Below, in pieces: positions 1 to 10,273 of a stretch of DNA of 10,273 nt. The stretch covers positions 1-10,273 of the forward strand of contig JBHLRZ010000063.1 of the NCBI GenBank assembly GCA_048882045.1, read 5' to 3'. Within the stretch, counting starts at the first letter, position 1; every line of letters begins with the position of its first letter. A program made the position numbers and the translations under genes. Under the pieces are notes generated by a model, which saw only the letters and a program-made list of their open reading frames with translations, was not told the DNA's origin and ran no database searches. This DNA comes from Candidatus Thorarchaeota archaeon. GTDB lineage: Archaea; Asgardarchaeota; Thorarchaeia; Thorarchaeales; Thorarchaeaceae.

Positions 1-430
1 ACACAGTATTACCTGTTGTCCACTCAATGTGAACATGATTATCTCTAATCATGCCAAGGAGTTGTTGTAGTAACTTAATTCCTACATAATCGTAGGTTCC
101 CTACAATTTGAATCAGTGTACCTCCATCCTCTGCAGTCCACGCGTCAGACTCTCCATGACACATTTCACCGAGTCATCGACGTTGACGGTCCTCCACCGG
201 GAATGGCACCAATCTCATGGCCTGGTCCCGATGGACCTTTGTTCAGTGTTCAAGACGTCTGAACTCCGGACCTAACGCTAGCACATCACGTTTTCAGTGA
301 GCGCTCCGCCAGCCTAATTGGTTGGCGATTTAAAGCTTGCTATGCGTCGAGGGTGAAAACCGTCACCAGTGCCACCAGAACAGCCTCACGACGTTTACGT
401 CGCATAAGACCTTCTCTTCGACGAGAGCAC
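1..430 (-). ncRNA. Putative large structured non-coding RNA (at least 430 nt, probably truncated by the window edge; possibly OLE-like)
   Basis: The ORF track shows no ORF of 60 aa or more in 1-486. Minus-strand helices found by eye: 414-427, 382-411 (GUCUUA..CGACG-UAAA-CGUCG-UGAGGC), 352-367, 338-348/274-283 (closing stem), 307-327, 286-300, 241-264, 224-237 (GGUCC-AUCG-GGACC), 268-272/188-192, 145-178, 81-96, 65-70/101-106, 32-55 (GGCAUGAUUA-GAGA-UAAUCAUGUU, GNRA loop) and 3-16. Several stems contain G-U pairs on the minus strand that would be A-C mismatches on the plus strand, which fixes the polarity. A BRE-TATA element lies just upstream. Confidence 0.75.
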
Positions 431-450
431 ATCTTTCCCATCAGAATTTG

Positions 451-465
451 CGTATAAAGCTTTTG
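451..465 (-). promoter_or_regulatory. Archaeal BRE + TATA box for the putative ncRNA
   Basis: The minus strand reads CAAAAGC-TTTATACG: an A-rich BRE directly followed by TTTATA (458-453). A pyrimidine/purine step (T/G) at 431/430 lies about 23-28 nt downstream, right where the first hairpin begins. Confidence 0.7.
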
Positions 466-486
466 ACAGAGGCTGTATTTTGAGCT

Positions 487-1194
487 CTATTTCAGAGATA
501 GTGCCTTGTTCTGAGCCTCAATAAGATCTGAGATTCCCTTGGTAGCAAGATCAAGCATCTCATTGAGTGCAGCTCGACCAAACCTTGCACCTTCTGCAGT
601 ACCCTGTACCTCTACGAACTGATTGTCCAACATTACAATATTCATATCAACATCTGCAGTCGCATCCTCTACATAACAGAGGTCTAGAAGGGCATCTCCG
701 TCAATCAGACCCACGCTAACAGCGGCAACATTTCCGTTTAACGGACGTTCAGATATCAAATCCATGTCGACCATGTATTGGAGTGCGTCACAAAGAGCTA
801 TATAGGCGCCGGTGATTGATGCAGTCCTTGTTCCTCCGTCAGCTTGGATGACATCACAGTCTATGCGGATTGTGTTATCGCCTAATCTGTCCATGTCGAC
901 AGCAGCTCTTAGAGAACGACCTATCAACCGTTGAATCTCCTGAGCTCGACCACTCATCTTGTATCGGTTCATTCGATCATCAGTTGAACGGGGTAGCATA
1001 CCATACTCAGCAGTCACCCACCCCTGGCCTCTTCCATTCAGCCAGCCGGGGACTACCTCTTCCACTGTAGCAGTACATATGACCTTGGTTTCACCCGTTG
1101 ACACTAGGACGGATCCTTCGGGGTGTTTGAGAAAGTTTCTGACAAATTCGACAGGACGAAGTTCGTCGTTCGCTCTACCATCAGCTCTTGGCAT
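487..1194 (-). CDS. rph: Ribonuclease PH (bacterial-type phosphorolytic 3'-5' exoribonuclease / tRNA nucleotidyltransferase)
   Basis: 235 aa. Contains R-x-DGR-x3-[36 protein letters not shown], the RNase PH signature [30 protein letters not shown] and EVQGTAE. Confidence 0.96.
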
Positions 1195-1260
1195 AGTGAT
1201 GAACCCATATTTTGACTAAGAAATCGACTATTAATCACTGTCGGGGAATGTAGGAGATAG

Positions 1261-1267
1261 TTTTATT
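1261..1267 (+). promoter_or_regulatory. Probable TATA box for the nucleotidyltransferase gene (leaderless or short leader)
   Basis: TTTTATT after purine-rich GAGATAG, about 24-30 nt upstream of the TTG at 1291. Confidence 0.4.
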
Positions 1268-1290
1268 GAGGTTCCTACACCTGATGAAGC

Positions 1291-2361
1291 TTGGAGTCTT
1301 TGGTAGAGAACACGAGGAGAGAGCAAAAATTGAAAGACCTTCACAAAAGATTTGACGATGCCCTTCGTGACACTGTGAATGAGTGGAGGGACCATAAAGA
1401 GGTGAAGGGGATTTTTGCATATGGTTCTTATGTGAGAGGTACAGTTACCGCAAACTCAGACCTTGACATCGGCATCATCTGGGGTGCAGATGATGCTCCA
1501 GTAAGGCTCATGTCAACACACAAGGAAGTCCCTGTCGACATGGTCTTCATGACTGTGAGTGATGTTGAGGGTGTTTTTAATGGGACTACTAAAGAAGTGA
1601 CTAAAATATCAGAGGTCATCAACCGACTGAGAAACTCTAAGGTGGTCCACGACACAGATGGACTCGTTAAGAGTTGGCAGGAAAAAACTGTGAATTACAC
1701 TTGGTCGGAGGAGGCTATCACACAGGTCAAAAATATAGCAATGGAGCACTTGAAGAGAGCAAGAAAGTTTGCGCAAGAGGATGAGGGACCCAGTGCAATT
1801 TTCGAACTGAGAGAGGGTCTCTTCAATATCGGTCGAGTCATCATCATGATAAACAACATTTTCCAAATACTCAAACCTGCTGAGGTGTTGACCGAAGTCA
1901 GAATGCTCGATCCAATTGCGTATTCTTTGTTTCTAAGAGCATACAAACTCAAAGGCATGTATGAACCAAAGCTCCTCAAGGTTCTAGAAGACATGCGACA
2001 GTGGTTGGAAATAGCAGAAGCCAAAATTAATACAGTCACAACAGATGAACAAGCCATCCTTGCCACTGAGCTGCTTTCACAAGCTCAGAGAGAGTATCAA
2101 GGATCACTACGTCTTACTTACAATGGCGACTACGAACTTGCAGTTCTGGAGATGCGGCAAGCAGCGTGTTCTTTGGGACGCGCGCTCATCACTCTCAAGG
2201 AGTTTTCAAGTTTCATTGATGGCGCTTTTATGGATCAGCTTGGTGAGAGCGAACCAGTGTTTTACGAAGAGATACTCATGGAACACGGAGCTTATGATAT
2301 CCTTCCAAAGGAAATTACACGAATTATCAGCGAAACAGAGTTCATCGCTCAACGATTCTAG
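1291..2361 (+). CDS. Pol-beta superfamily nucleotidyltransferase (MNT/KNTase-like) with two C-terminal HEPN-like helical repeats
   Basis: Has the hG[GS]x9-13DhDh motif (YGSYVRGTVTANSDLDI) and a third acidic residue in VPVDMVF. Two similar helical segments follow: AMEHLKRARKFAQEDEGPSAIFELREG and AQREYQGSLRLTYNGDYELAVLEMRQA. TTG start. Confidence 0.85.
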   Translation: MESLVENTRREQKLKDLHKRFDDALRDTVNEWRDHKEVKGIFAYGSYVRGTVTANSDLDIGIIWGADDAPVRLMSTHKEVPVDMVFMTVSDVEGVFNGTTKEVTKISEVINRLRNSKVVHDTDGLVKSWQEKTVNYTWSEEAITQVKNIAMEHLKRARKFAQEDEGPSAIFELREGLFNIGRVIIMINNIFQILKPAEVLTEVRMLDPIAYSLFLRAYKLKGMYEPKLLKVLEDMRQWLEIAEAKINTVTTDEQAILATELLSQAQREYQGSLRLTYNGDYELAVLEMRQAACSLGRALITLKEFSSFIDGAFMDQLGESEPVFYEEILMEHGAYDILPKEITRIISETEFIAQRF

Positions 2362-2408
2362 GTTAGATTGATTAGGATAATTTGAAAATCCCATATTCAG
2401 TGGTTACG

Positions 2409-2972
2409 ATGACTGCTGTTCAGATATTGAAGCTCTTGAGTGTTACTTTGACAAGAGAAAAACAGGACATTCTAGAGAAGGAGCTTGGGAAGTATGGTAA
2501 AGCCACTAATTGGACTATCAAGCAGATTCTGAAACAGCATCTCACAGCACCAGTAAAGACGATGGATGTTCTTAGAGATTCATTCACAGAACAATTCGAC
2601 AAACGTGATCAGTACTTTCAGGATGTTGTGAAAACCGCAAGAGTTGAGATATCGAACCACCGGAAGTTGGCGAAAACTGTTCGGAGTATGAGGGACAAGA
2701 CACCCTTCTTTAAACCGGGCAGGATGATTCTCTCACAACCCCTTCTCAGACTAAGCGAGAAGGCTGTGACGCTCTCAATTCCAGATGGTACTAAATTGGC
2801 CATACCTTTTGACAAAAGGAGTAGAAATCGGTTGGTTGAGAAGATTCAGTCAATATTGAGAGGAGAGAAATCTGGTGAAATCAATCGAAAATATGGTCGA
2901 ATACGTATCACTTGGAACAAAGAGGGATTCGCAGATATAGATATTCGAGCAATTATCTCAGACAACCCATGA
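2409..2972 (+). CDS. Basic protein resembling the N-terminal WED/REC region of TnpB/Cas12f, lacking RuvC
   Basis: The ORF track gives 2382-2972 (TTG). I prefer the ATG at 2409 because TTTGAA at 2381-2386 sits at TATA distance from it. The pattern LKLLSVTLTREKQDILEKELGKYGKATNWTI ... YFQDVVKTA ... PFFK ... ILSQPLLRL..AVTL...GTKLAIP ... YGRIRITWNKEGFADIDI follows the usual order of TnpB N-terminal elements. The protein ends before any G[VI]D[LV]G RuvC-I motif. The ORF is probably real; the fold call is from pattern recognition only. Confidence 0.6.
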   Translation: MTAVQILKLLSVTLTREKQDILEKELGKYGKATNWTIKQILKQHLTAPVKTMDVLRDSFTEQFDKRDQYFQDVVKTARVEISNHRKLAKTVRSMRDKTPFFKPGRMILSQPLLRLSEKAVTLSIPDGTKLAIPFDKRSRNRLVEKIQSILRGEKSGEINRKYGRIRITWNKEGFADIDIRAIISDNP

Positions 2973-3839
2973 TACGATTGATCCAGAAGGATCACCTGTA
3001 TACACGACATCTTTCGTGTTAGACCAAGTCAGTGATGTGATTCCTGTCACAAGTTTTCCTGATGCGACTTCTTTACCATCCTCAACAGACCAGATTCGTA
3101 GTGTTCGGTCCCAACTTCCAGATGCAAGAAACATTCCAGAAGGATCTACAGCCATCGAACTAACTATGTCTGAGTGTCCAGACATCTTCAATCTGTCATC
3201 GCTGTTTTCGATATTGATTCTCAGAATGGTACCACCATTTTGTCCGAGAAACACGGATGACCCATCTGGAGTAGAGGTCATTGACCTAAGGCGAGGTCCC
3301 TTCTTTCGTAATGTCTTGATTAGTTCATAGTTAGATAAATCCCAGAGTTTACATTCTCCATCATACGAAGAGGTCAACATCCTCTTCTCCCCCTCCAGCA
3401 AGATAATTCCAGATATGTCTGATTTGTGTGCCTGTAGATTCTTTGTACATTTCAGGCTTTTGAGGGAGAAAAGCTTGATTTCACCGTCACGAGCTCCTGA
3501 AGCGCCTTTTCCCGAAGAGGGGGAGGTTGTAAGAGCTCGGACCTCGGAAGCATGCTTCAGTACAATTGGATCTTCTCTGGATTTTGTGTTCCAGAGTCTT
3601 GTTGTCTTGTCTCGACTGCAAGAAACCACTGATGTTGAACTACTTGTGAAGGCAACAGCAGCTACTGCTCCATCGTGGCCTTTTAGCCCTCGTTTTGTTT
3701 TTCCAGTCTTGGAATCTATCAGTATGATTGAGCCATCGGAAGACCCACTAACAAGTAGCCGTCCTTTAGGAGCTATTGCGATGCTTGTCAGTGAGGGAGA
3801 TACTCCACCAGTTGGTCGAAAAAGGATGGTCTTTTCCAA
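2958..3839 (-). CDS. WD40-repeat beta-propeller protein (about 7 blades)
   Basis: Repeated GH...S.S.D..h.hW units: LKGHDGAV..SCSRDKTTRLWN, QAHKSDI..TSSYDGECKLWD, MSGHSDIV..SGSWDRTLRIWS. TTG start with GGTGAT Shine-Dalgarno at 3850-3845. Confidence 0.95.
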   Translation of the reverse strand: MEKTILFRPTGGVSPSLTSIAIAPKGRLLVSGSSDGSIILIDSKTGKTKRGLKGHDGAVAAVAFTSSSTSVVSCSRDKTTRLWNTKSREDPIVLKHASEVRALTTSPSSGKGASGARDGEIKLFSLKSLKCTKNLQAHKSDISGIILLEGEKRMLTSSYDGECKLWDLSNYELIKTLRKKGPRLRSMTSTPDGSSVFLGQNGGTILRINIENSDDRLKMSGHSDIVSSMAVDPSGMFLASGSWDRTLRIWSVEDGKEVASGKLVTGITSLTWSNTKDVVYTGDPSGSIVSWVV

Positions 3840-3844
3840 TCTAT

Positions 3845-3894
3845 ATCACCATGAAACAAGCATCAAATGATGGTCAAGGAAAATTCAGTTAAAA
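3845..3894 (-). promoter_or_regulatory. TATA box and Shine-Dalgarno of the WD40 gene
   Basis: Minus-strand TTTTAA at 3894-3889 and GGTGAT at 3850-3845, 5 nt before the TTG start. Confidence 0.5.
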
Positions 3895-3906
3895 GTGTGT
3901 AACATA

Positions 3907-4905
3907 TCATCTGCGTCTGAACATGAAAATGATCACAGGGACCACAATGATTGCTCCTGCAGCAACCCATAGAAGAGTAGGATTGTCAACTGGAAATGAT
4001 GTACCACTGTTGGCATATTCAACGACAAAGACCTCTAACACTTCACCCACAGTCTGTAGACTTTCAGCACTACACTTTTCAGGGGTGTCCTCAACGGTGT
4101 GCCAATACCAAGGAAATGGGTAGTGAATCAGATCCACAGATGGTATTCCAACATTTAGAAAAGGCCGATGATCATCAGTGATTGAAGCTCCACCGGTTTC
4201 AAGAAAGGTATCATTGTGACCTAGTTGATGGGCGATGCTCCAGATTGTGTTCTGAAGGGATGTTGTGGAACTACTCTCACGTGGCAAACGCAAGTTTTCG
4301 TCTCCCACCATATCAGCTAGAATCATTGCTTGAATGGAGCTAATCCGTACCGAACTGAGTTGTGATACATAATAGGTGGCACCCTGTATCCAGTCCCAAC
4401 CGTCAATCTGCCCAGAGTCCTCAGCGTCAAAGAGAACCAGTTCTACAGTCGATCGTACAGTTTCAGGTAATGAACGAGCAAGTTCCATGAGAACAGCAAC
4501 ACCACTTGCACCATCATTGGCTCCGAGCACCGGTTTTGTTCGGTTCTCAATGTATGGGTCGGATGTCGCTCGGGGCCGCGTGTCGTAGTGAGCTCCGAGG
4601 ATTATTGGGGAAGTTTGCGAAGATTCCCATGTTGCGATGATGTTGACACATTCAACCTCCATGTAAGTGAAATCTTGCAACGTCACGTTCCATCCGAAAG
4701 ATTCGATTGTTTCGGCAATGTATGCTCTACTACGGGTGAGATTTCCTGAACCTGGAGGACGAGGGCCAAAGTCACACTGGTCAATTAGATACTGATAGGC
4801 ATTGGTACCATTGAAGCTGGGGACATGAGTAATCTGATGAGGGCCAATTGAACTCACTGAAACAACAAGCAGCAGTATAATAGAAGCAGTCCAGAACTCT
4901 CTCAT
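3907..4905 (-). CDS. M28-family Zn metalloenzyme, glutaminyl-cyclase-like, with N-terminal signal peptide and C-terminal membrane anchor
   Basis: Motifs FGPRPPGS, GAHYDTR, GANDGASGVAVLMELA, LFDAED, DMVGD, DDHRPF and WHTVEDT. Hydrophobic N-terminus (WTASIILLLVVSV) and C-terminal LLWVAAGAIIVVPVIIFMF-RRR. Confidence 0.9.
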   Translation of the reverse strand: MREFWTASIILLLVVSVSSIGPHQITHVPSFNGTNAYQYLIDQCDFGPRPPGSGNLTRSRAYIAETIESFGWNVTLQDFTYMEVECVNIIATWESSQTSPIILGAHYDTRPRATSDPYIENRTKPVLGANDGASGVAVLMELARSLPETVRSTVELVLFDAEDSGQIDGWDWIQGATYYVSQLSSVRISSIQAMILADMVGDENLRLPRESSSTTSLQNTIWSIAHQLGHNDTFLETGGASITDDHRPFLNVGIPSVDLIHYPFPWYWHTVEDTPEKCSAESLQTVGEVLEVFVVEYANSGTSFPVDNPTLLWVAAGAIIVVPVIIFMFRRR

Positions 4906-4943
4906 CGCAATACAATCCCCTGAGAAGGACCCTAAGAAGTTTT

Positions 4944-6164
4944 TCAGCTTGAATTGTTAATTCGTGAATGGACCACTTGTTTGATGATAGTGGGCAACTC
5001 CCTTGGTAGACTCTTCAACACAGTATAGGGTATATCAGAATAGCCAATCTCTCCACGTGCAACCTTTGCCATGATTGAGTTGGCAAGTCTGTGACCACTA
5101 ACTCTGGGAAGTATGATTTCAGCGAGTGGAGTGCCTCCAGATCCAACTCGTCCAGCGAATGAGAAGTTTGCAGAGAAGCGGTCTTGACACATCTGTTGGT
5201 ACTCGGACAGTATTTCTTCGTCATATCGTTCTTCATCGATTGCTTTGGAGAGTACTGAGGCGGCACACACACCAGACTGCATTGCGTATGCAATTCCTTC
5301 CCCCATCATTGGATCAACAAATCCCGCAGCATCACCGATTAATATGGCACGATTAGTCACGTTCTTGCTTCGTAGACCATCACCGCCAATGAAAAAGGTC
5401 CGCCTCTTGTCCAGATTGAGAGGAACCCCTAATCGTTCCTCAGTCTTTCTACAGAAATCGTCAAATTTCTGTCTTAGGTCTCGCATATGAACTCCTGATC
5501 CAGCTACCCCTATTGCAAGATGTTCCTTCTTGGGAAATACCCATCCATAGCTGATTTGGTTTTCAGCTGGGCAAATCTCAAGGATTGTCGGATTTCCATC
5601 TGTTGCATTCTGAACTCCCTCTTCTCCCACATAGAAATCAGACTCCATACCAAGACCTACCTTGAGCAGGTCCTTTCTTTTTGGACGAAGTCCTAGAGCT
5701 CTGCTTACAACGGAATTCACTCCGTCTGCTCCAAGGAGATACTTACCTCTATATTCCCTTCCATCTGCGAGTTCCACTATAGCCGATTGATCAGTCACTA
5801 AAGCATTCTTGACACGAGAGTCTTCGATGAGTTCAGCTCCCGCTTTGGTAGCCCTTCTTGCGAGGAACTCGTCAAACCTGTGCCGAAATACAGTAATTCC
5901 CATCAGTCTGTCGGAGGTAAATTCAGCTACCTTCTCACCTGGAAGGAGAAATCTGAGACCGTGGATTCTCTGCTCAACAATGTTTCTAGGCACCTTACCT
6001 CCGATCAATCTGAGCGCACGATACATCACAGCTCCACCACAAGGTTTCTCACGTGGTAGTCGCTCCTTTTCAAGAAGGAGCGTGCTTAAGCCCATGCTAG
6101 CACAATCATATGCTGCAGTAGATCCTGCGGGACCAGCTCCAACCACGATAACATCATAGATCAA
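4944..6164 (-). CDS. Geranylgeranyl reductase family FAD-dependent oxidoreductase
   Basis: VVGAGPAG dinucleotide-binding motif, EKPCGG, GADG, YGWVFPK and GDAAGFVDPMMGEGI. TTG start with AGGAG upstream. Confidence 0.92.
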   Translation of the reverse strand: MIYDVIVVGAGPAGSTAAYDCASMGLSTLLLEKERLPREKPCGGAVMYRALRLIGGKVPRNIVEQRIHGLRFLLPGEKVAEFTSDRLMGITVFRHRFDEFLARRATKAGAELIEDSRVKNALVTDQSAIVELADGREYRGKYLLGADGVNSVVSRALGLRPKRKDLLKVGLGMESDFYVGEEGVQNATDGNPTILEICPAENQISYGWVFPKKEHLAIGVAGSGVHMRDLRQKFDDFCRKTEERLGVPLNLDKRRTFFIGGDGLRSKNVTNRAILIGDAAGFVDPMMGEGIAYAMQSGVCAASVLSKAIDEERYDEEILSEYQQMCQDRFSANFSFAGRVGSGGTPLAEIILPRVSGHRLANSIMAKVARGEIGYSDIPYTVLKSLPRELPTIIKQVVHSRINNSS

Positions 6165-6243
6165 GTCTTCTGCGCTCCTACTCTGGAATTGAAACCTAAT
6201 TCTTGAAACTACAAAATCATTCTACATGATGCACTAATTAGCT

Positions 6244-7074
6244 TTAACTTTCCGCAATAATGAACTCGAAAGTGTCGTCTGTATCGGCTTCATCAACTCC
6301 CAGTTTCTGACGAATTAGACTCTCGAATGCGGGGTTTATCTCGTATCCAATCGAGTTCCGTCCCAGTTCGCGAGCTACTTTTAGTGTGGTCCCACTTCCA
6401 GCAAAGGGATCAAGAACAGTATCACCTACAAACGAATATAGACGAATGCATCTACGTGGAAGCTCTTCTGGAAAAGGTGCAGGGTGTTTCTCTTGTTTTG
6501 CAGATGCAGGTTGGAAATCCCATATCGAATTTTGTACCCAGTTGGTGAACTCATCGTGTGTAATCTTAGATGCGTCCTTGATTTCTGGATCTACTGGCTT
6601 TCTCTTTCCCTTCTTTGCAAAGACGATTATCCATTCATAGGGGTAGGATGATATCAAGTTGGGAGGATAAGGATAAGATCCCCAAGAACTGAACCGAACA
6701 ACCTTCCTCTTGTCCCAAATGAATAGAGAATGGAAATACATGTTTCCAAGAGAAACCATAAAATCTTCCAAATCCGTCAGAACTGATTTTGTGACGCGAC
6801 GGTTGAATTTAGTGTTCTTGCCAGTGAGTAGAATAGGCATGATGTTGATGATCAATTTTCCATCTGGCACCAGTTTTTTCACACATTCATTAAACACACT
6901 GTTTATTGAGGCGAGATAGTCTTCATAGGATTCAGACGTCTGGCTGATTCCTTTATCGTCCCCATAGTCTTTGAGTTTCCAATATGGAGGAGAAGTCACT
7001 ATGAGGTGAACAGAGGAGTCATCTATCATGTCCATGTTTGCACTGTCACTAATCACAACTTTGTGATGGGTCAT
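6244..7074 (-). CDS. Beta-class amino-DNA methyltransferase (SPPY, probably N4-cytosine)
   Basis: Motif IV TSPPY near the N-terminus, HPAPFPEELPRR, and motif I DPFAGSGTT near the C-terminus, giving beta order. Starts 1 nt after the stop of the upstream MTase. Confidence 0.92.
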   Translation of the reverse strand: MTHHKVVISDSANMDMIDDSSVHLIVTSPPYWKLKDYGDDKGISQTSESYEDYLASINSVFNECVKKLVPDGKLIINIMPILLTGKNTKFNRRVTKSVLTDLEDFMVSLGNMYFHSLFIWDKRKVVRFSSWGSYPYPPNLISSYPYEWIIVFAKKGKRKPVDPEIKDASKITHDEFTNWVQNSIWDFQPASAKQEKHPAPFPEELPRRCIRLYSFVGDTVLDPFAGSGTTLKVARELGRNSIGYEINPAFESLIRQKLGVDEADTDDTFEFIIAES

Positions 7075-7075
7075 C

Positions 7076-8179
7076 TTATTTTCGGCCCCCAGTGGCCAGG
7101 TCCCAGACTAGAATCTGCTCTTTCCTGTTTGTTGAATTGATGTTATCCCAGAGGCCGCTGGCGGTGTTAGTATAATCACGTTCGACTGCATAGGGAGTAT
7201 TCCAAGGTGCGATCTCAGAGAAGAAGTCAGCACCTCTGATGAGTTTCTTTTTGACCATACGATCTCCGACTACGAATATGATTAGAGACTCATCATGTAC
7301 CACCTTGTCAATTGCTTTTAGTGCAGATTTCATGTCTTCTCGATATGAGGTGAACTTCTGGATGAGCCCGTCACGGATAGTTGCTCTGTCCATGCCTATG
7401 ATCTCCATCACAATCTTGGAGTAATAGCTTGTATAATCAAGAGCATCAAAGTATGGAGGACTAGTGTATACAACATCAACAGATTTGTCGTCCACAATTT
7501 CGTGAATTTTTCGTGTGTCGTGGCAGTAAATCTTAGCTTCATACCCTGAGTTGAGAAAGCCAATGTGTTTACGGACTTTCCTGAGAAGTGTTGCATAGAA
7601 ATCGATGTTCCTCAGAGGTTCATTAATTCGTCCTACTGATGTAGACGTCCAAAGCCAACCATTACATGCTCTAGCGGCAACACAAATCGATCCGTAGAGA
7701 GCTGCAAGCAGATAAAATGGAAATCCTTCGGAAAGAGCAACCATTCTCATAATTTGATCAGCAGTGGTAGGATGGAAATAACGTGAGGCTGAGTCAGGCA
7801 TCTTTGGAACGCTGCGCAATGATGGGGCTTTTTTGACGACATCAGCAAGTATTGAATCGACTAAATCAACCTCAATCTGTTCGATTTTGCCTCTGGCTAT
7901 CATGCATGCCAGAGGATTGTTGTCGACTCCAATGGCTTTCATTCCATGAGCTTGGGCTTCATAGATAATTGTGCCTGTACCACAGAATGGATCAAGAAGA
8001 GTTGTATCAGATGGAAGCTGCGAAATGACATGAGCAGCATCGATAGCAGACATCTTTCCTCTGTAAGGATAGATGCCGTGAATCGATTTGGGATTACTGA
8101 CTTTGTCAAAGTGTCCTAAGGTGATTCTTGGTGTTGAATCACTGAATTGGCCTGTACTTACCCCTGGCTCTTGCATCAC
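7076..8179 (-). CDS. Alpha-class amino-DNA methyltransferase (SPPY, probably N4-cytosine)
   Basis: HGIYPYRGKM (motif X), LDPFCGTGT (motif I), a variable TRD-like region, then YTSPPY (motif IV), giving alpha order. The start is GTG 8179 or ATG 8176, with AGGAG at 8188-8184. Confidence 0.88.
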   Translation of the reverse strand: MMQEPGVSTGQFSDSTPRITLGHFDKVSNPKSIHGIYPYRGKMSAIDAAHVISQLPSDTTLLDPFCGTGTIIYEAQAHGMKAIGVDNNPLACMIARGKIEQIEVDLVDSILADVVKKAPSLRSVPKMPDSASRYFHPTTADQIMRMVALSEGFPFYLLAALYGSICVAARACNGWLWTSTSVGRINEPLRNIDFYATLLRKVRKHIGFLNSGYEAKIYCHDTRKIHEIVDDKSVDVVYTSPPYFDALDYTSYYSKIVMEIIGMDRATIRDGLIQKFTSYREDMKSALKAIDKVVHDESLIIFVVGDRMVKKKLIRGADFFSEIAPWNTPYAVERDYTNTASGLWDNINSTNRKEQILVWDLATGGRK

Positions 8180-8207
8180 GATTCTCCTAGAATTACCCGT
8201 TGTCGTG

Positions 8208-9005
8208 CTAATACCTGTCAGCTAACTTGTCTACAGCCATGACTAGAGCGTCAAGAGACTTTGCAATGGCTTCGACAAGAAGAGGATCTTGCTCTCCTGT
8301 CATTTCGTCTTCAGATTTCTGTTCAGTCTTCTGAGCACCATGAAGATTACCATCACATGATAGAATGGCTCCTGTATCGAGACCTTTAGTCTGTGCGAAC
8401 GTAAAGAGAAGAGATGCTTCCATCTCGACACATTTTACCCTAGCTCGTGTCCAGATTTCAAGATGATTATGGGCTGGATTCACATAGTAGATATCTGAGG
8501 TCCAGTTAATACCTGAGTGAACGCGATGAGCAGGCAACAACTTGGAAATACTATCGTATAAGGCAAGATACCACTCGGGCGAAGCCACTGCTGGATACTC
8601 TATTGGTGCATAGTTAAGACTTGCACGTTCATCTCGAACTGCTGCAGTAGGAACGACAACATCACCAGTCTTAACCGCTGGATCAACACCTCCACAACTA
8701 CCTAGTCGAAGGATAACTTTGCAATCTAGTTTTGCGAGTTCCTCCACACAGATGTGTGTTGACGCAACTCCCATTCCAGTTCCCGATATTGTGATGGGAT
8801 TCCCCTTTGGTGTGTAGGCTCGATAAGTGACAAGGCCACGATACCGCGCTACTTCCTCGGGATCCTTCATCCTTCCAGCAATCACGGGCACTCTCTCGGG
8901 ATTTCCTGTGATCACAACAATTTTCTCCACATCGCCTTCGCCAACTCTGAGGTGAGGTTGAATTCGTTTCTTCAATGGAACCACCTGACTAAAATCAGGT
9001 TCCAC
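8208..9005 (-). CDS. Nucleoside phosphorylase (NP-I family, uridine phosphorylase/PNP-like)
   Basis: ITGNPERV, GTGMG, ILRLGSCGG, GDVVV..AAVRDE and VEMEAS motifs. GTG start. Confidence 0.9.
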   Translation of the reverse strand: MEPDFSQVVPLKKRIQPHLRVGEGDVEKIVVITGNPERVPVIAGRMKDPEEVARYRGLVTYRAYTPKGNPITISGTGMGVASTHICVEELAKLDCKVILRLGSCGGVDPAVKTGDVVVPTAAVRDERASLNYAPIEYPAVASPEWYLALYDSISKLLPAHRVHSGINWTSDIYYVNPAHNHLEIWTRARVKCVEMEASLLFTFAQTKGLDTGAILSCDGNLHGAQKTEQKSEDEMTGEQDPLLVEAIAKSLDALVMAVDKLADRY

Positions 9006-9034
9006 ATCTCACTTTTACAATGTTCGGTTTCTAT

Positions 9035-9235
9035 TCAGCATTGGAAAGGAATGCCTTCGATTCGAGCGAGAACGCAATCAATGCATACACATCTTCCATT
9101 GATGAGGAAAGTTCTTGCAAAGCGTGGAGAGTCAGAGCTACAGACATTGCAGGGCCGAATTTCTGTAGAATAGTTTTCAGTGAGGAACACGAGTAACAGT
9201 GACATCAATTTCGTGTTCTGTTGTTGAATCAGCAT
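9035..9235 (-). CDS. Small putative C4 zinc-finger protein
   Basis: 66 aa with CNVC-x18-CIDC (preceded by GRCV). The spacing is reminiscent of ClpX-type treble-clef fingers. Purine-rich GAGGATGTGA lies upstream of the ATG, and the gene is co-oriented with the phosphorylase. Confidence 0.5.
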   Translation of the reverse strand: MLIQQQNTKLMSLLLVFLTENYSTEIRPCNVCSSDSPRFARTFLINGRCVCIDCVLARIEGIPFQC

Positions 9236-9325
9236 TGTACTTCACATCCTCAATATCGTGTATCTGTTTCCTTATTAGGTACACATACAGTGAACAAGTC
9301 ACCAGTAGAAAGGAAGTAATTGATA

Positions 9326-9700
9326 ATGAGCAGCGACTTCGTTTACCATTGCTATCGATGCGGTACGGAAAACCAGTATGACCTACCAAAACCAAACGCA
9401 CCTAACTATCATCATGCATCGCTCACTTGCAAGAGCTGCGGAGACAGCACCCATGTTCTACTCAGTCATTGTCCAAATTGCCACCGGTATGTTTTCTGGA
9501 TAGATGACATGTCTATCCCAGATACTGTGAATGGATTCGCCAAGTATATGGTCCACCATATGCAGGCCTTGATAGATCAAGCAGCTAGGCAAGGCGCTTC
9601 AATCAGTATAGACACACCGGATAACTATCCGATCAGTGCTACTTGCCCCTGTGGAACGACATTCAATGTGGAGCTACCAATTCCCGATCTCGATGAATGA
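9326..9700 (+). CDS. Multi-CxxC zinc-ribbon protein of unknown function
   Basis: CYRCG, CKSCG, CPNCH and CPCG knuckles. The ORF track starts it at TTG 9320; the ATG at 9326 follows AAGGAAG. Confidence 0.8.
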   Translation: MSSDFVYHCYRCGTENQYDLPKPNAPNYHHASLTCKSCGDSTHVLLSHCPNCHRYVFWIDDMSIPDTVNGFAKYMVHHMQALIDQAARQGASISIDTPDNYPISATCPCGTTFNVELPIPDLDE

Positions 9701-9706
9701 CTTGAT

Positions 9707-10273
9707 TCAGCACATATAGTAGTAGATATTGCTCTCACCCTTTGGGAAGAGGGTTGCAACTAGGGACTTGAGGTCACGGTTGACAATGAAGTCGATATTG
9801 TTGTATTTGAGTTCATCAATGTCATAGACTCCAAAAATCAAGCGGATTAAATCACTTGGAGGAGCACGAAAACCACGATGCTCATCTACTTCTTGCATTC
9901 CAATATCAACAATACTCTCAATTTTTCCACTCACAAACTTCAGAAGATAGCAGTTTCGGAAAGTGTTGATAGTAAGGTCATGAGTTAATCCTTCAAACAT
10001 TGATCCAACAAGTCGTTTCTCAAGGACTGGCGCGATTTTCTGAAGTAGACGTAAAATATTTGGGACACGGAGCTGATGTTTCCACTGTCCCAGAACTTGA
10101 CCTCCGAGATCATGTGCTATTTTTCGAAGATTGTTAGAGGGAGGGCCGACGAATCCAACTCGATGAAAATTATTCTGCAAAGCCTCTGCCTTCACAAACT
10201 GAAGAGCCCTCATGACTCCATCGAATGTTCTGATGCTGCTCTCGATTACACGCATATTCGACCCGTAAAGACC
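9707..10273 (-). CDS. C-terminal part of an Eis-like GNAT N-acetyltransferase (SCP2-like tail); 5' end outside the window
   Basis: The frame stays open to the window edge (GLYGSN before the annotated M). The pattern LRVPNI..LL..IAPVLEKRL..S.FEG....LTIN....YLLKF..GKI ... LIRLIFG....EL ... LFPK resembles Eis-type GNAT C-termini. Confidence 0.7.
   Translation of the reverse strand, partial: GLYGSNMRVIESSIRTFDGVMRALQFVKAEALQNNFHRVGFVGPPSNNLRKIAHDLGGQVLGQWKHQLRVPNILRLLQKIAPVLEKRLVGSMFEGLTHDLTINTFRNCYLLKFVSGKIESIVDIGMQEVDEHRGFRAPPSDLIRLIFGVYDIDELKYNNIDFIVNRDLKSLVATLFPKGESNIYYYMC

Follow-up and report, generated by a model that had tools for sequence, protein, structure and literature searches.

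Can a TnpB- or Cas12f-type nuclease lose its RuvC domain and still be retained by the cell as a protein under selection? The question is raised by a small gene on a 10,273-nt stretch of DNA from Candidatus Thorarchaeota archaeon (NCBI GenBank assembly GCA_048882045.1, contig JBHLRZ010000063.1, positions 1 to 10,273 of the forward strand; hereafter the window). A first-pass annotation of the letters alone had proposed that the open frame at 2382..2972 (+) encodes a TnpB/Cas12f-like protein with WED and REC domains and no RuvC. Here, we examine the predicted fold, distribution and surroundings of this gene, hereafter the WED/REC gene, and weigh what its product may do.

A predicted recognition lobe that ends before RuvC

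The frame is intact, as first noted, and comprises 196 codons when counted from TTG 2382. Orthologues have their first residue at ATG 2409, both in all 183 database homologues and in our alignment of 28 members, so this codon is the likely start and the product has 187 residues (coding sequence 2409..2972, +, including the stop); the 5' part of the mechanical open reading frame (ORF) from TTG 2382 (2382..2408, +) is probably untranslated. This orthologue-fixed start agrees with the length of about 187 residues given initially. The Lys/Arg-rich character is likewise a property of the whole family, which has a median isoelectric point of 10.1, a net charge of +13 and 14 alignment columns that are at least 85% Lys/Arg. 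The protein contains no cysteine.

An AlphaFold2 model built on the 28-sequence alignment (pLDDT 91, pTM 0.85) consists of a strand (residues 3–11), three long helices (16–90) and a beta-rich region with two short helices (105–183), the last comprising a beta-rich part at 105–134 and a final hairpin at 162–183. The same order of strand, helices, beta-rich part and final hairpin had been read from the sequence. According to the model and its DSSP assignment, residues 3–11 (2415..2441, +) form WED strand beta-1, with the topology of WED residues 1–12 in ISDra2 TnpB. The three-helix bundle of residues 16–90 (2454..2678, +) is REC-like and inserted after beta-1, and residues 105–183 (2721..2957, +) supply the remaining strands of the WED beta-barrel, including the motifs ILSQP and IPFDKRSRN that are invariant in the alignment. 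The model thus contains a recognition lobe, with an OB-type WED barrel and REC inserted between beta-1 and beta-2.

Structural searches point in one direction. The top 29 Foldseek matches in the PDB are all Cas12f, TnpB or Cas12k (best E 1e-5; query-normalised template-modelling (TM) scores 0.45–0.67), and nearly all the matches below them are Cas12-type or Fanzor chains. When the model was compared with 48,161 chains, the 32 best were exclusively TnpB, Cas12 or Fanzor. A shape search of the ESM Atlas matched TnpB clusters with TM scores of 0.73–0.78 and root-mean-square deviations of 2.2–2.9 Å over 157–175 residues, and it returned both full-length TnpB clusters and short clusters of the same fold. 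The short clusters ('Transposase (Fragment)' and PF27234, MJ0013; 178–262 residues, TM 0.74–0.77) come from other phyla, and their resemblance to the WED/REC protein lies in fold and in language-model features.

Model residues 1–187 align with residues 1–179 of ISDra2 TnpB, in which WED spans 1–12 and 117–176, REC spans 13–116 and RuvC begins at 185 (PMC10097598). The protein therefore stops where RuvC would begin, as the first-pass annotation had put it. In keeping with this, the OrfB_IS605 model for RuvC matches 0 of the 28 family members, the TNB/zinc-ribbon model PF07282 has no match in the family (a search of the genome gave three other loci only), and we found no longer or fused relatives carrying RuvC among the relatives searched. 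A divergent 377-residue metagenomic relative (P0137) has a C-terminal extension of about 180 residues made of four helical repeats (RPWEV...IRR) that is not RuvC-like. Taken with the whole-length fold matches, the model indicates that the protein comprises the WED+REC recognition lobe of the TnpB/Cas12f type in full, without RuvC.

A fixed, single-copy gene of one Asgard family

We searched 400 genomes of the phylum with a profile of the family, 85 from one Asgard family and 315 from 32 others. The gene was found in none of the 315 and in 79 of the 85 genomes, representing 16 of 16 genera. In the other six, the nucleotidyltransferase (NTase) gene that neighbours it is missing as well (five genomes) or present as a fragment only (one genome). 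Because the locus adjoins the 23S rRNA gene, and because the NTase is missing or fragmentary too, these absences look like assembly breaks. When 1.8 billion representative sequences were searched exhaustively, only 22 clusters were returned, relatives were absent from viral contigs, and the homologues at NCBI are labelled Candidatus Thorarchaeota, Sifarchaeia or Promethearchaeota.

The homologues listed measure either 178–203 residues or, with an insertion in REC, 228–257 residues. The insertion, of about 45 residues, occurs in five genera (g3, g4, g7, g9 and g10; e.g. P0122, L043–L046). It sits between REC helices 2 and 3, a lineage-specific growth of REC like that seen in Cas12 evolution. 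One genome (G328, contigs C82 and C67; 6% contamination) contains two NTase–WED/REC pairs, of which the first has the short form of the protein and the second the form with the insertion; it is probably a mixed bin.

The gene is single-copy in the genome studied here, for which completeness is 93%. Synonymous sites are saturated between most orthologues, and we therefore took the ratio of nonsynonymous to synonymous substitution rates (dN/dS) from 12 pairs with dS below 2; the median is 0.10 for the WED/REC gene and 0.095 for the neighbouring NTase gene. The frame is intact in all orthologues, which share the C-terminal end, copy number and synteny along with this purifying selection. The possibility raised at the outset that the gene is a recent pseudogene is contradicted, as no relative carries a full-length tnpB at the locus. 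We conclude that this is a fixed, selected, single-copy cellular gene and not a fragment.

Signs of mobility are also lacking: the gene has a single copy, fixed synteny and no terminal repeats, in place of insertion sequence (IS) ends, TnpA and multiple patchy copies. ORF, array and terminal-hairpin searches of the window bore out the initial statement that tnpA, CRISPR arrays and IS-end hairpins are missing; TnpA-like ORFs and tandem or CRISPR-like arrays were absent, as were terminal hairpins or inverted repeats around the gene. True TnpBs are distributed differently in the same Asgard family: they occur in 55 of 86 genomes, and the number of matches per genome ranges from 0 to at least 19.

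The genome studied here contains three TnpB-type loci: one full-length TnpB of 558 residues (L004), one locus interrupted by a contig end (L003) and one TnpB of 447 residues (L002:814-2157, on contig C21 of G000) that lacks the first ~159 residues, corresponding to beta-1 and REC, and abuts another gene. We considered whether this truncated TnpB could be the missing half of a split protein and rejected the idea. It keeps WED strands of its own, the frames of its closest relatives in other genomes are open over 578–593 residues, and its lineage is patchy and multi-copy.

Relation to TnpB, Cas12f and TldR

The TnpBs of IS200/IS605 elements (ISDra2 TnpB, PDB 8h1j/8exa) and Cas12f (8dzj, 9i8y) have RuvC, a TNB/zinc-finger and a C-terminal domain, none of which is present here. 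The WED/REC gene further differs from them in having no detectable sequence similarity, no adjacent omega-RNA, no TnpA and no IS ends, and in being single-copy and immobile. It shares with TldR and the nuclease-dead dCas12f the state of a TnpB/Cas12f derivative that does not cut and is fixed beside a non-transposon gene. TldRs have lost their catalytic residues, and often the C-terminal zinc finger and part of RuvC, while the fold, the RNA surface and the guide are kept (PMC10705468). TldR and dCas12f thus still have a RuvC-like lobe, albeit with mutations or a partial truncation, as well as a guide gene immediately downstream, whereas here the lobe, with the RNA-binding surface it would carry, and the guide locus are gone. 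Moreover, TldR and dCas12f are bacterial proteins with demonstrated RNA-guided DNA binding; the WED/REC protein is archaeal and known from sequence and model.

Exapted TnpBs associated with sigma factors, flagellin, DppD and RHH/MazE were described by Altae-Tran et al. 2023 (PMC10691335). In the passages of that paper drawn on here, these TnpBs resemble the WED/REC gene in being immobilised and in having a conserved link to a host gene; they are described with either inactivated or intact catalytic sites, no form without RuvC is mentioned, and the Asgard groups named are those with Cas1-associated mobile TnpBs. In the literature that we searched in full text, we found no relevant form lacking RuvC and no description of reuse of the recognition lobe alone. 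On the strength of its model, we class the protein as a TnpB-type exaptation of which the recognition lobe is left. It lacks the RuvC, TNB, guide locus and mobility of a TnpB and the RuvC-like lobe of a TldR, and shares with TldRs the association with a host gene.

An NTase gene and a conserved element upstream

The associated host gene encodes an NTase (1330..2361, +), whose start is probably TTG 1330, with the mechanical ORF running from 1291. It has a Pol-beta-type core with intact catalytic motifs (G-S and D-x-D), followed by a HEPN-like helical domain; it is kanamycin-nucleotidyltransferase-like, and its fold resembles both ANT(4')/KNT and the oligonucleotide-making enzyme HalB. A conserved TATA-like promoter element, GATAGTTTTATTGA, lies ahead of it at 1256..1269 (+). 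Across nine orthologous loci, down to 35% identity, the gene order is RNase PH (−), NTase of ~340 residues (+), WED/REC (+), an optional WD40 gene (−), M28 peptidase (−) and FAD oxidoreductase (−). The NTase gene stands directly upstream on the same strand in all 36 loci with enough flanking sequence (15 of 16 genera), at a distance of 45–164 nt, and the pairing holds where RNase PH (L013) or WD40 (L010–L012) is missing.

The sister family is represented by a single genome (G311, 96% complete), in which a clear orthologue of the NTase (E 6e-82) is present and a WED/REC gene is found nowhere. There (L053, G311:C23:89500-98500) the NTase gene is followed by a gene for a small membrane protein of 102 residues and a profilin-like gene, and RNase PH is found at a distance of 3 kb, beyond a PmbA/TldD pair. 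In the simplest history consistent with these gene orders, the NTase gene was already in place when a TnpB-type gene arrived behind it in the family ancestor and was then shortened and retained. Loss in the sister lineage could also account for the pattern.

The spacer between the NTase and WED/REC genes contains a locus-specific element. Alignment of orthologous loci revealed that TAGATTGATTAGG (2364..2376, +) contains a core, ATTGATTAG, whose end is 33 nt from the ATG; extended to ATTGATTAG(G), it is separated from the start codon by about 32 nt. The spacer is otherwise variable. With up to two mismatches the core is present in 27 of 29 non-redundant loci, compared with 4.6 for shuffled sequences, and in 21 loci it is exact. 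It ends 30–36 nt before the ATG in 25 of the 27. The 13-mer TAGATTGATTAGG is unique in its own genome. The core occurs there at 24 sites, whereas permuted words give ~36, and it shows no enrichment ahead of ORFs. Its spacing would place the transcription start ~10 nt before the ATG.

The TATA-like element reported initially is thus partly borne out: a conserved element stands at promoter distance, yet it does not amount to a canonical TATA box and is unlike the clear TATA elements found elsewhere in this genome, AAGCTTTAWA ahead of the 23S leader and GATAGTTTTATTGA ahead of the NTase gene. By the simplest reading, TAGATTGATTAGG is probably the gene's own atypical promoter, resembling a B recognition element (BRE)/TATA box and maybe overlapped by an operator, or else it is itself an operator. 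Single-sequence folds of 20 orthologous spacers gave no shared hairpin. As a separate, post hoc observation to which we give no weight, the element contains TTGAT, the transposon-adjacent motif (TAM) of ISDra2 TnpB.

A candidate nucleic-acid binder without a guide

What might a recognition lobe do by itself? In TnpB, the TAM duplex is bound by the cleft between WED and REC alone, the omega-RNA scaffold lies on a surface formed by WED and RuvC, and the guide–target duplex is held between REC and RuvC (PMC10097598). By this comparison, the WED/REC protein keeps the whole of the TAM-duplex surface and half of the scaffold and guide–target surfaces. Room for a guide is also lacking at the 3' end of the gene, which runs 15 nt into the convergent WD40 gene (2958..3839, −), an overlap that had been pointed out at the start; in other loci the convergent gene is 45–64 nt away. 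Rfam searches near the gene found rRNA only, and CRISPR-like arrays are absent. With the omega-RNA surface contributed by RuvC lost, and no space next to the gene for a guide, we favour binding that does not depend on one.

We consider it probable, if well short of certain, that the protein is an old domesticated recognition lobe of a TnpB/Cas12f-type nuclease acting as a non-cutting, guide-independent nucleic-acid binder. Its WED–REC cleft, kept whole, would provide the binding surface. The target may be double-stranded DNA, for instance the gene's own ATTGATTAGG upstream element, or structured RNA bound through the OB-type WED barrel, and the protein possibly serves the NTase encoded upstream. 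As targets, DNA and RNA seem to us equally possible, each tentatively so; something other than either is slightly better placed, if still short of even.

Several observations weigh against this proposal. The structure is a predicted model, not a solved one, and it is fold and charge that suggest nucleic-acid binding. Sequence and profile searches of Pfam, NCBIfam and the PDB gave no significant match to TnpB or Cas12. The best sub-threshold match was NCBIfam Cas12f2 (E 0.01 in 5 of 28 members), and an hhalign comparison with Thorarchaeal TnpB N-lobes gave a probability of 0.1%, with a TnpB profile that is shallow (70–94% identity). The upstream element, which shows no enrichment in the rest of the genome, may be a promoter only. 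Adjacency to the NTase could be just a matter of general synteny, and the one sister-family genome has the enzyme and lacks the WED/REC gene. Finally, among public sequencing runs, no RNA-seq run containing this DNA is listed.

Alternative functions and origins

The constant neighbour suggests a different role, in which the protein is a subunit of the upstream NTase that recruits or presents an RNA or DNA end, or binds the enzyme, for example in RNA 3'-end metabolism with RNase PH and the 23S gene close by. The invariant same-strand arrangement, which persists without RNase PH or WD40, speaks for this, as do the matching dN/dS values of the two genes, the intact catalytic motifs of the NTase and its likeness to ANT(4')/KNT and HalB. 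Against it, the G311 enzyme does without a WED/REC partner, the whole region is syntenic in the family, which makes adjacency weak evidence, and the WED/REC gene seems to have a promoter-like element of its own. A complex prediction for the two proteins scored 0.00; it was run without controls and counts neither way. We regard a subunit role of this kind as unlikely, though worth keeping in mind.

Could the protein instead act like TldR, repressing or marking DNA targets with a guide RNA supplied from elsewhere? The fold is that of the lobe that recognises guide and target, which argues for such a function. However, RuvC, which helps to hold the omega-RNA scaffold in TnpB (PMC10097598), is missing, no guide can follow a gene whose 3' end overlaps or closely approaches a convergent one, rRNA is the sole RNA family that Rfam found near the gene, and no candidate RNA was identified. 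RNA-guided binding by analogy with TldR is thus rather improbable.

By a further analogy, the two genes might form one system in which the NTase makes or tails a short nucleic acid and the WED/REC protein binds it or uses it as a guide; HalB, to which the NTase is structurally related, makes oligodeoxyadenylate. We see this as a long shot. If true, it would represent nucleic-acid-guided recognition without RuvC or a genome-encoded guide.

More remote still is the possibility that the fold does not stem from TnpB at all, and that an independent OB-barrel with a helical bundle, or a relic that predates TnpB, has an unrelated function. The sequence data are what give this alternative its force: no significant sequence or profile link leads to any TnpB or Cas12 family, and no relatives are seen on viral contigs. 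The profile similarity to TnpB/Cas12f that the first-pass annotation had named as a check was not borne out; TIGR01765, the TIGRFAM for the TnpB N-terminus, reached a sub-threshold E of 0.027 in 1 of 28 members and matched nothing in a search of the own genome, and BLASTP found no match to the full-length TnpB of that genome. Since no sequence or profile search reaches TnpB, it is the fold that carries the argument for descent. Several things argue against independent origin: the match runs from end to end and extends to the unusual placing of REC between WED beta-1 and beta-2, the 32 best of 48,161 chains are exclusively TnpB, Cas12 or Fanzor, and the superposition on the Atlas clusters is close. 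Confinement to one archaeal family, when TnpB occurs across bacteria and archaea, fits derivation from TnpB and not the other way round. Common descent with TnpB is therefore likely on the basis of this full-length and topologically unusual match.

A functionless, decaying IS fragment, which the 5'-truncated copy L002 and the other TnpBs of this genome might bring to mind, can be dismissed for a gene that is single-copy at a fixed locus in 16 of 16 genera, with dN/dS of ~0.1, a frame that every orthologue keeps intact and no similarity to those TnpBs.

The surrounding locus

The convergent neighbour downstream encodes a WD40 beta-propeller and is missing from some orthologous loci. On the other side, the RNase PH gene (487..1194, −) is divergent from the NTase gene. 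An element in the spacer between these two, CGACTATTAATCACTGTCGGG (1225–1245), is kept across genera and may be the TATA box of RNase PH on the opposite strand or a regulator site. Positions 1..486 (−) contain two tandem rRNA promoters of the BRE/TATA type (AAGCTTTATA at 453–462 and AAGCTTTAAA at 329–338) and the 5' leader of the 23S rRNA, as judged by alignment, by motif positions and by the 23S gene that follows RNase PH in orthologous loci. The leader is conserved, and the contig end falls directly before the 23S rRNA gene.

Farther downstream, two adjacent genes on the minus strand encode DNA methyltransferases (6244–7074, N6_N4_Mtase; 7076–8179, D12/N6_N4-like), and both keep their place in most, not all, of the orthologous loci examined. 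The window showed no restriction enzyme. An ORF of 182 residues at 9707–10255 (−) has no Pfam match.

Implications

In the literature that we searched, every reused TnpB or Cas12 (Cas12k, Cas12m, dCas12f, TldR) keeps at least a remnant of the RuvC lobe and a guide RNA. If our interpretation holds, a recognition lobe alone can persist for a very long time as a selected cellular protein, here in all genera of a family whose synonymous sites are saturated. It would be a natural minimal WED+REC module of 187 residues, for TAM-type reading of DNA or for RNA binding without R-loop formation, and possibly a very small DNA- or RNA-binding scaffold. It would also be one more example of a domesticated transposon gene, from the archaea most closely related to eukaryotes.
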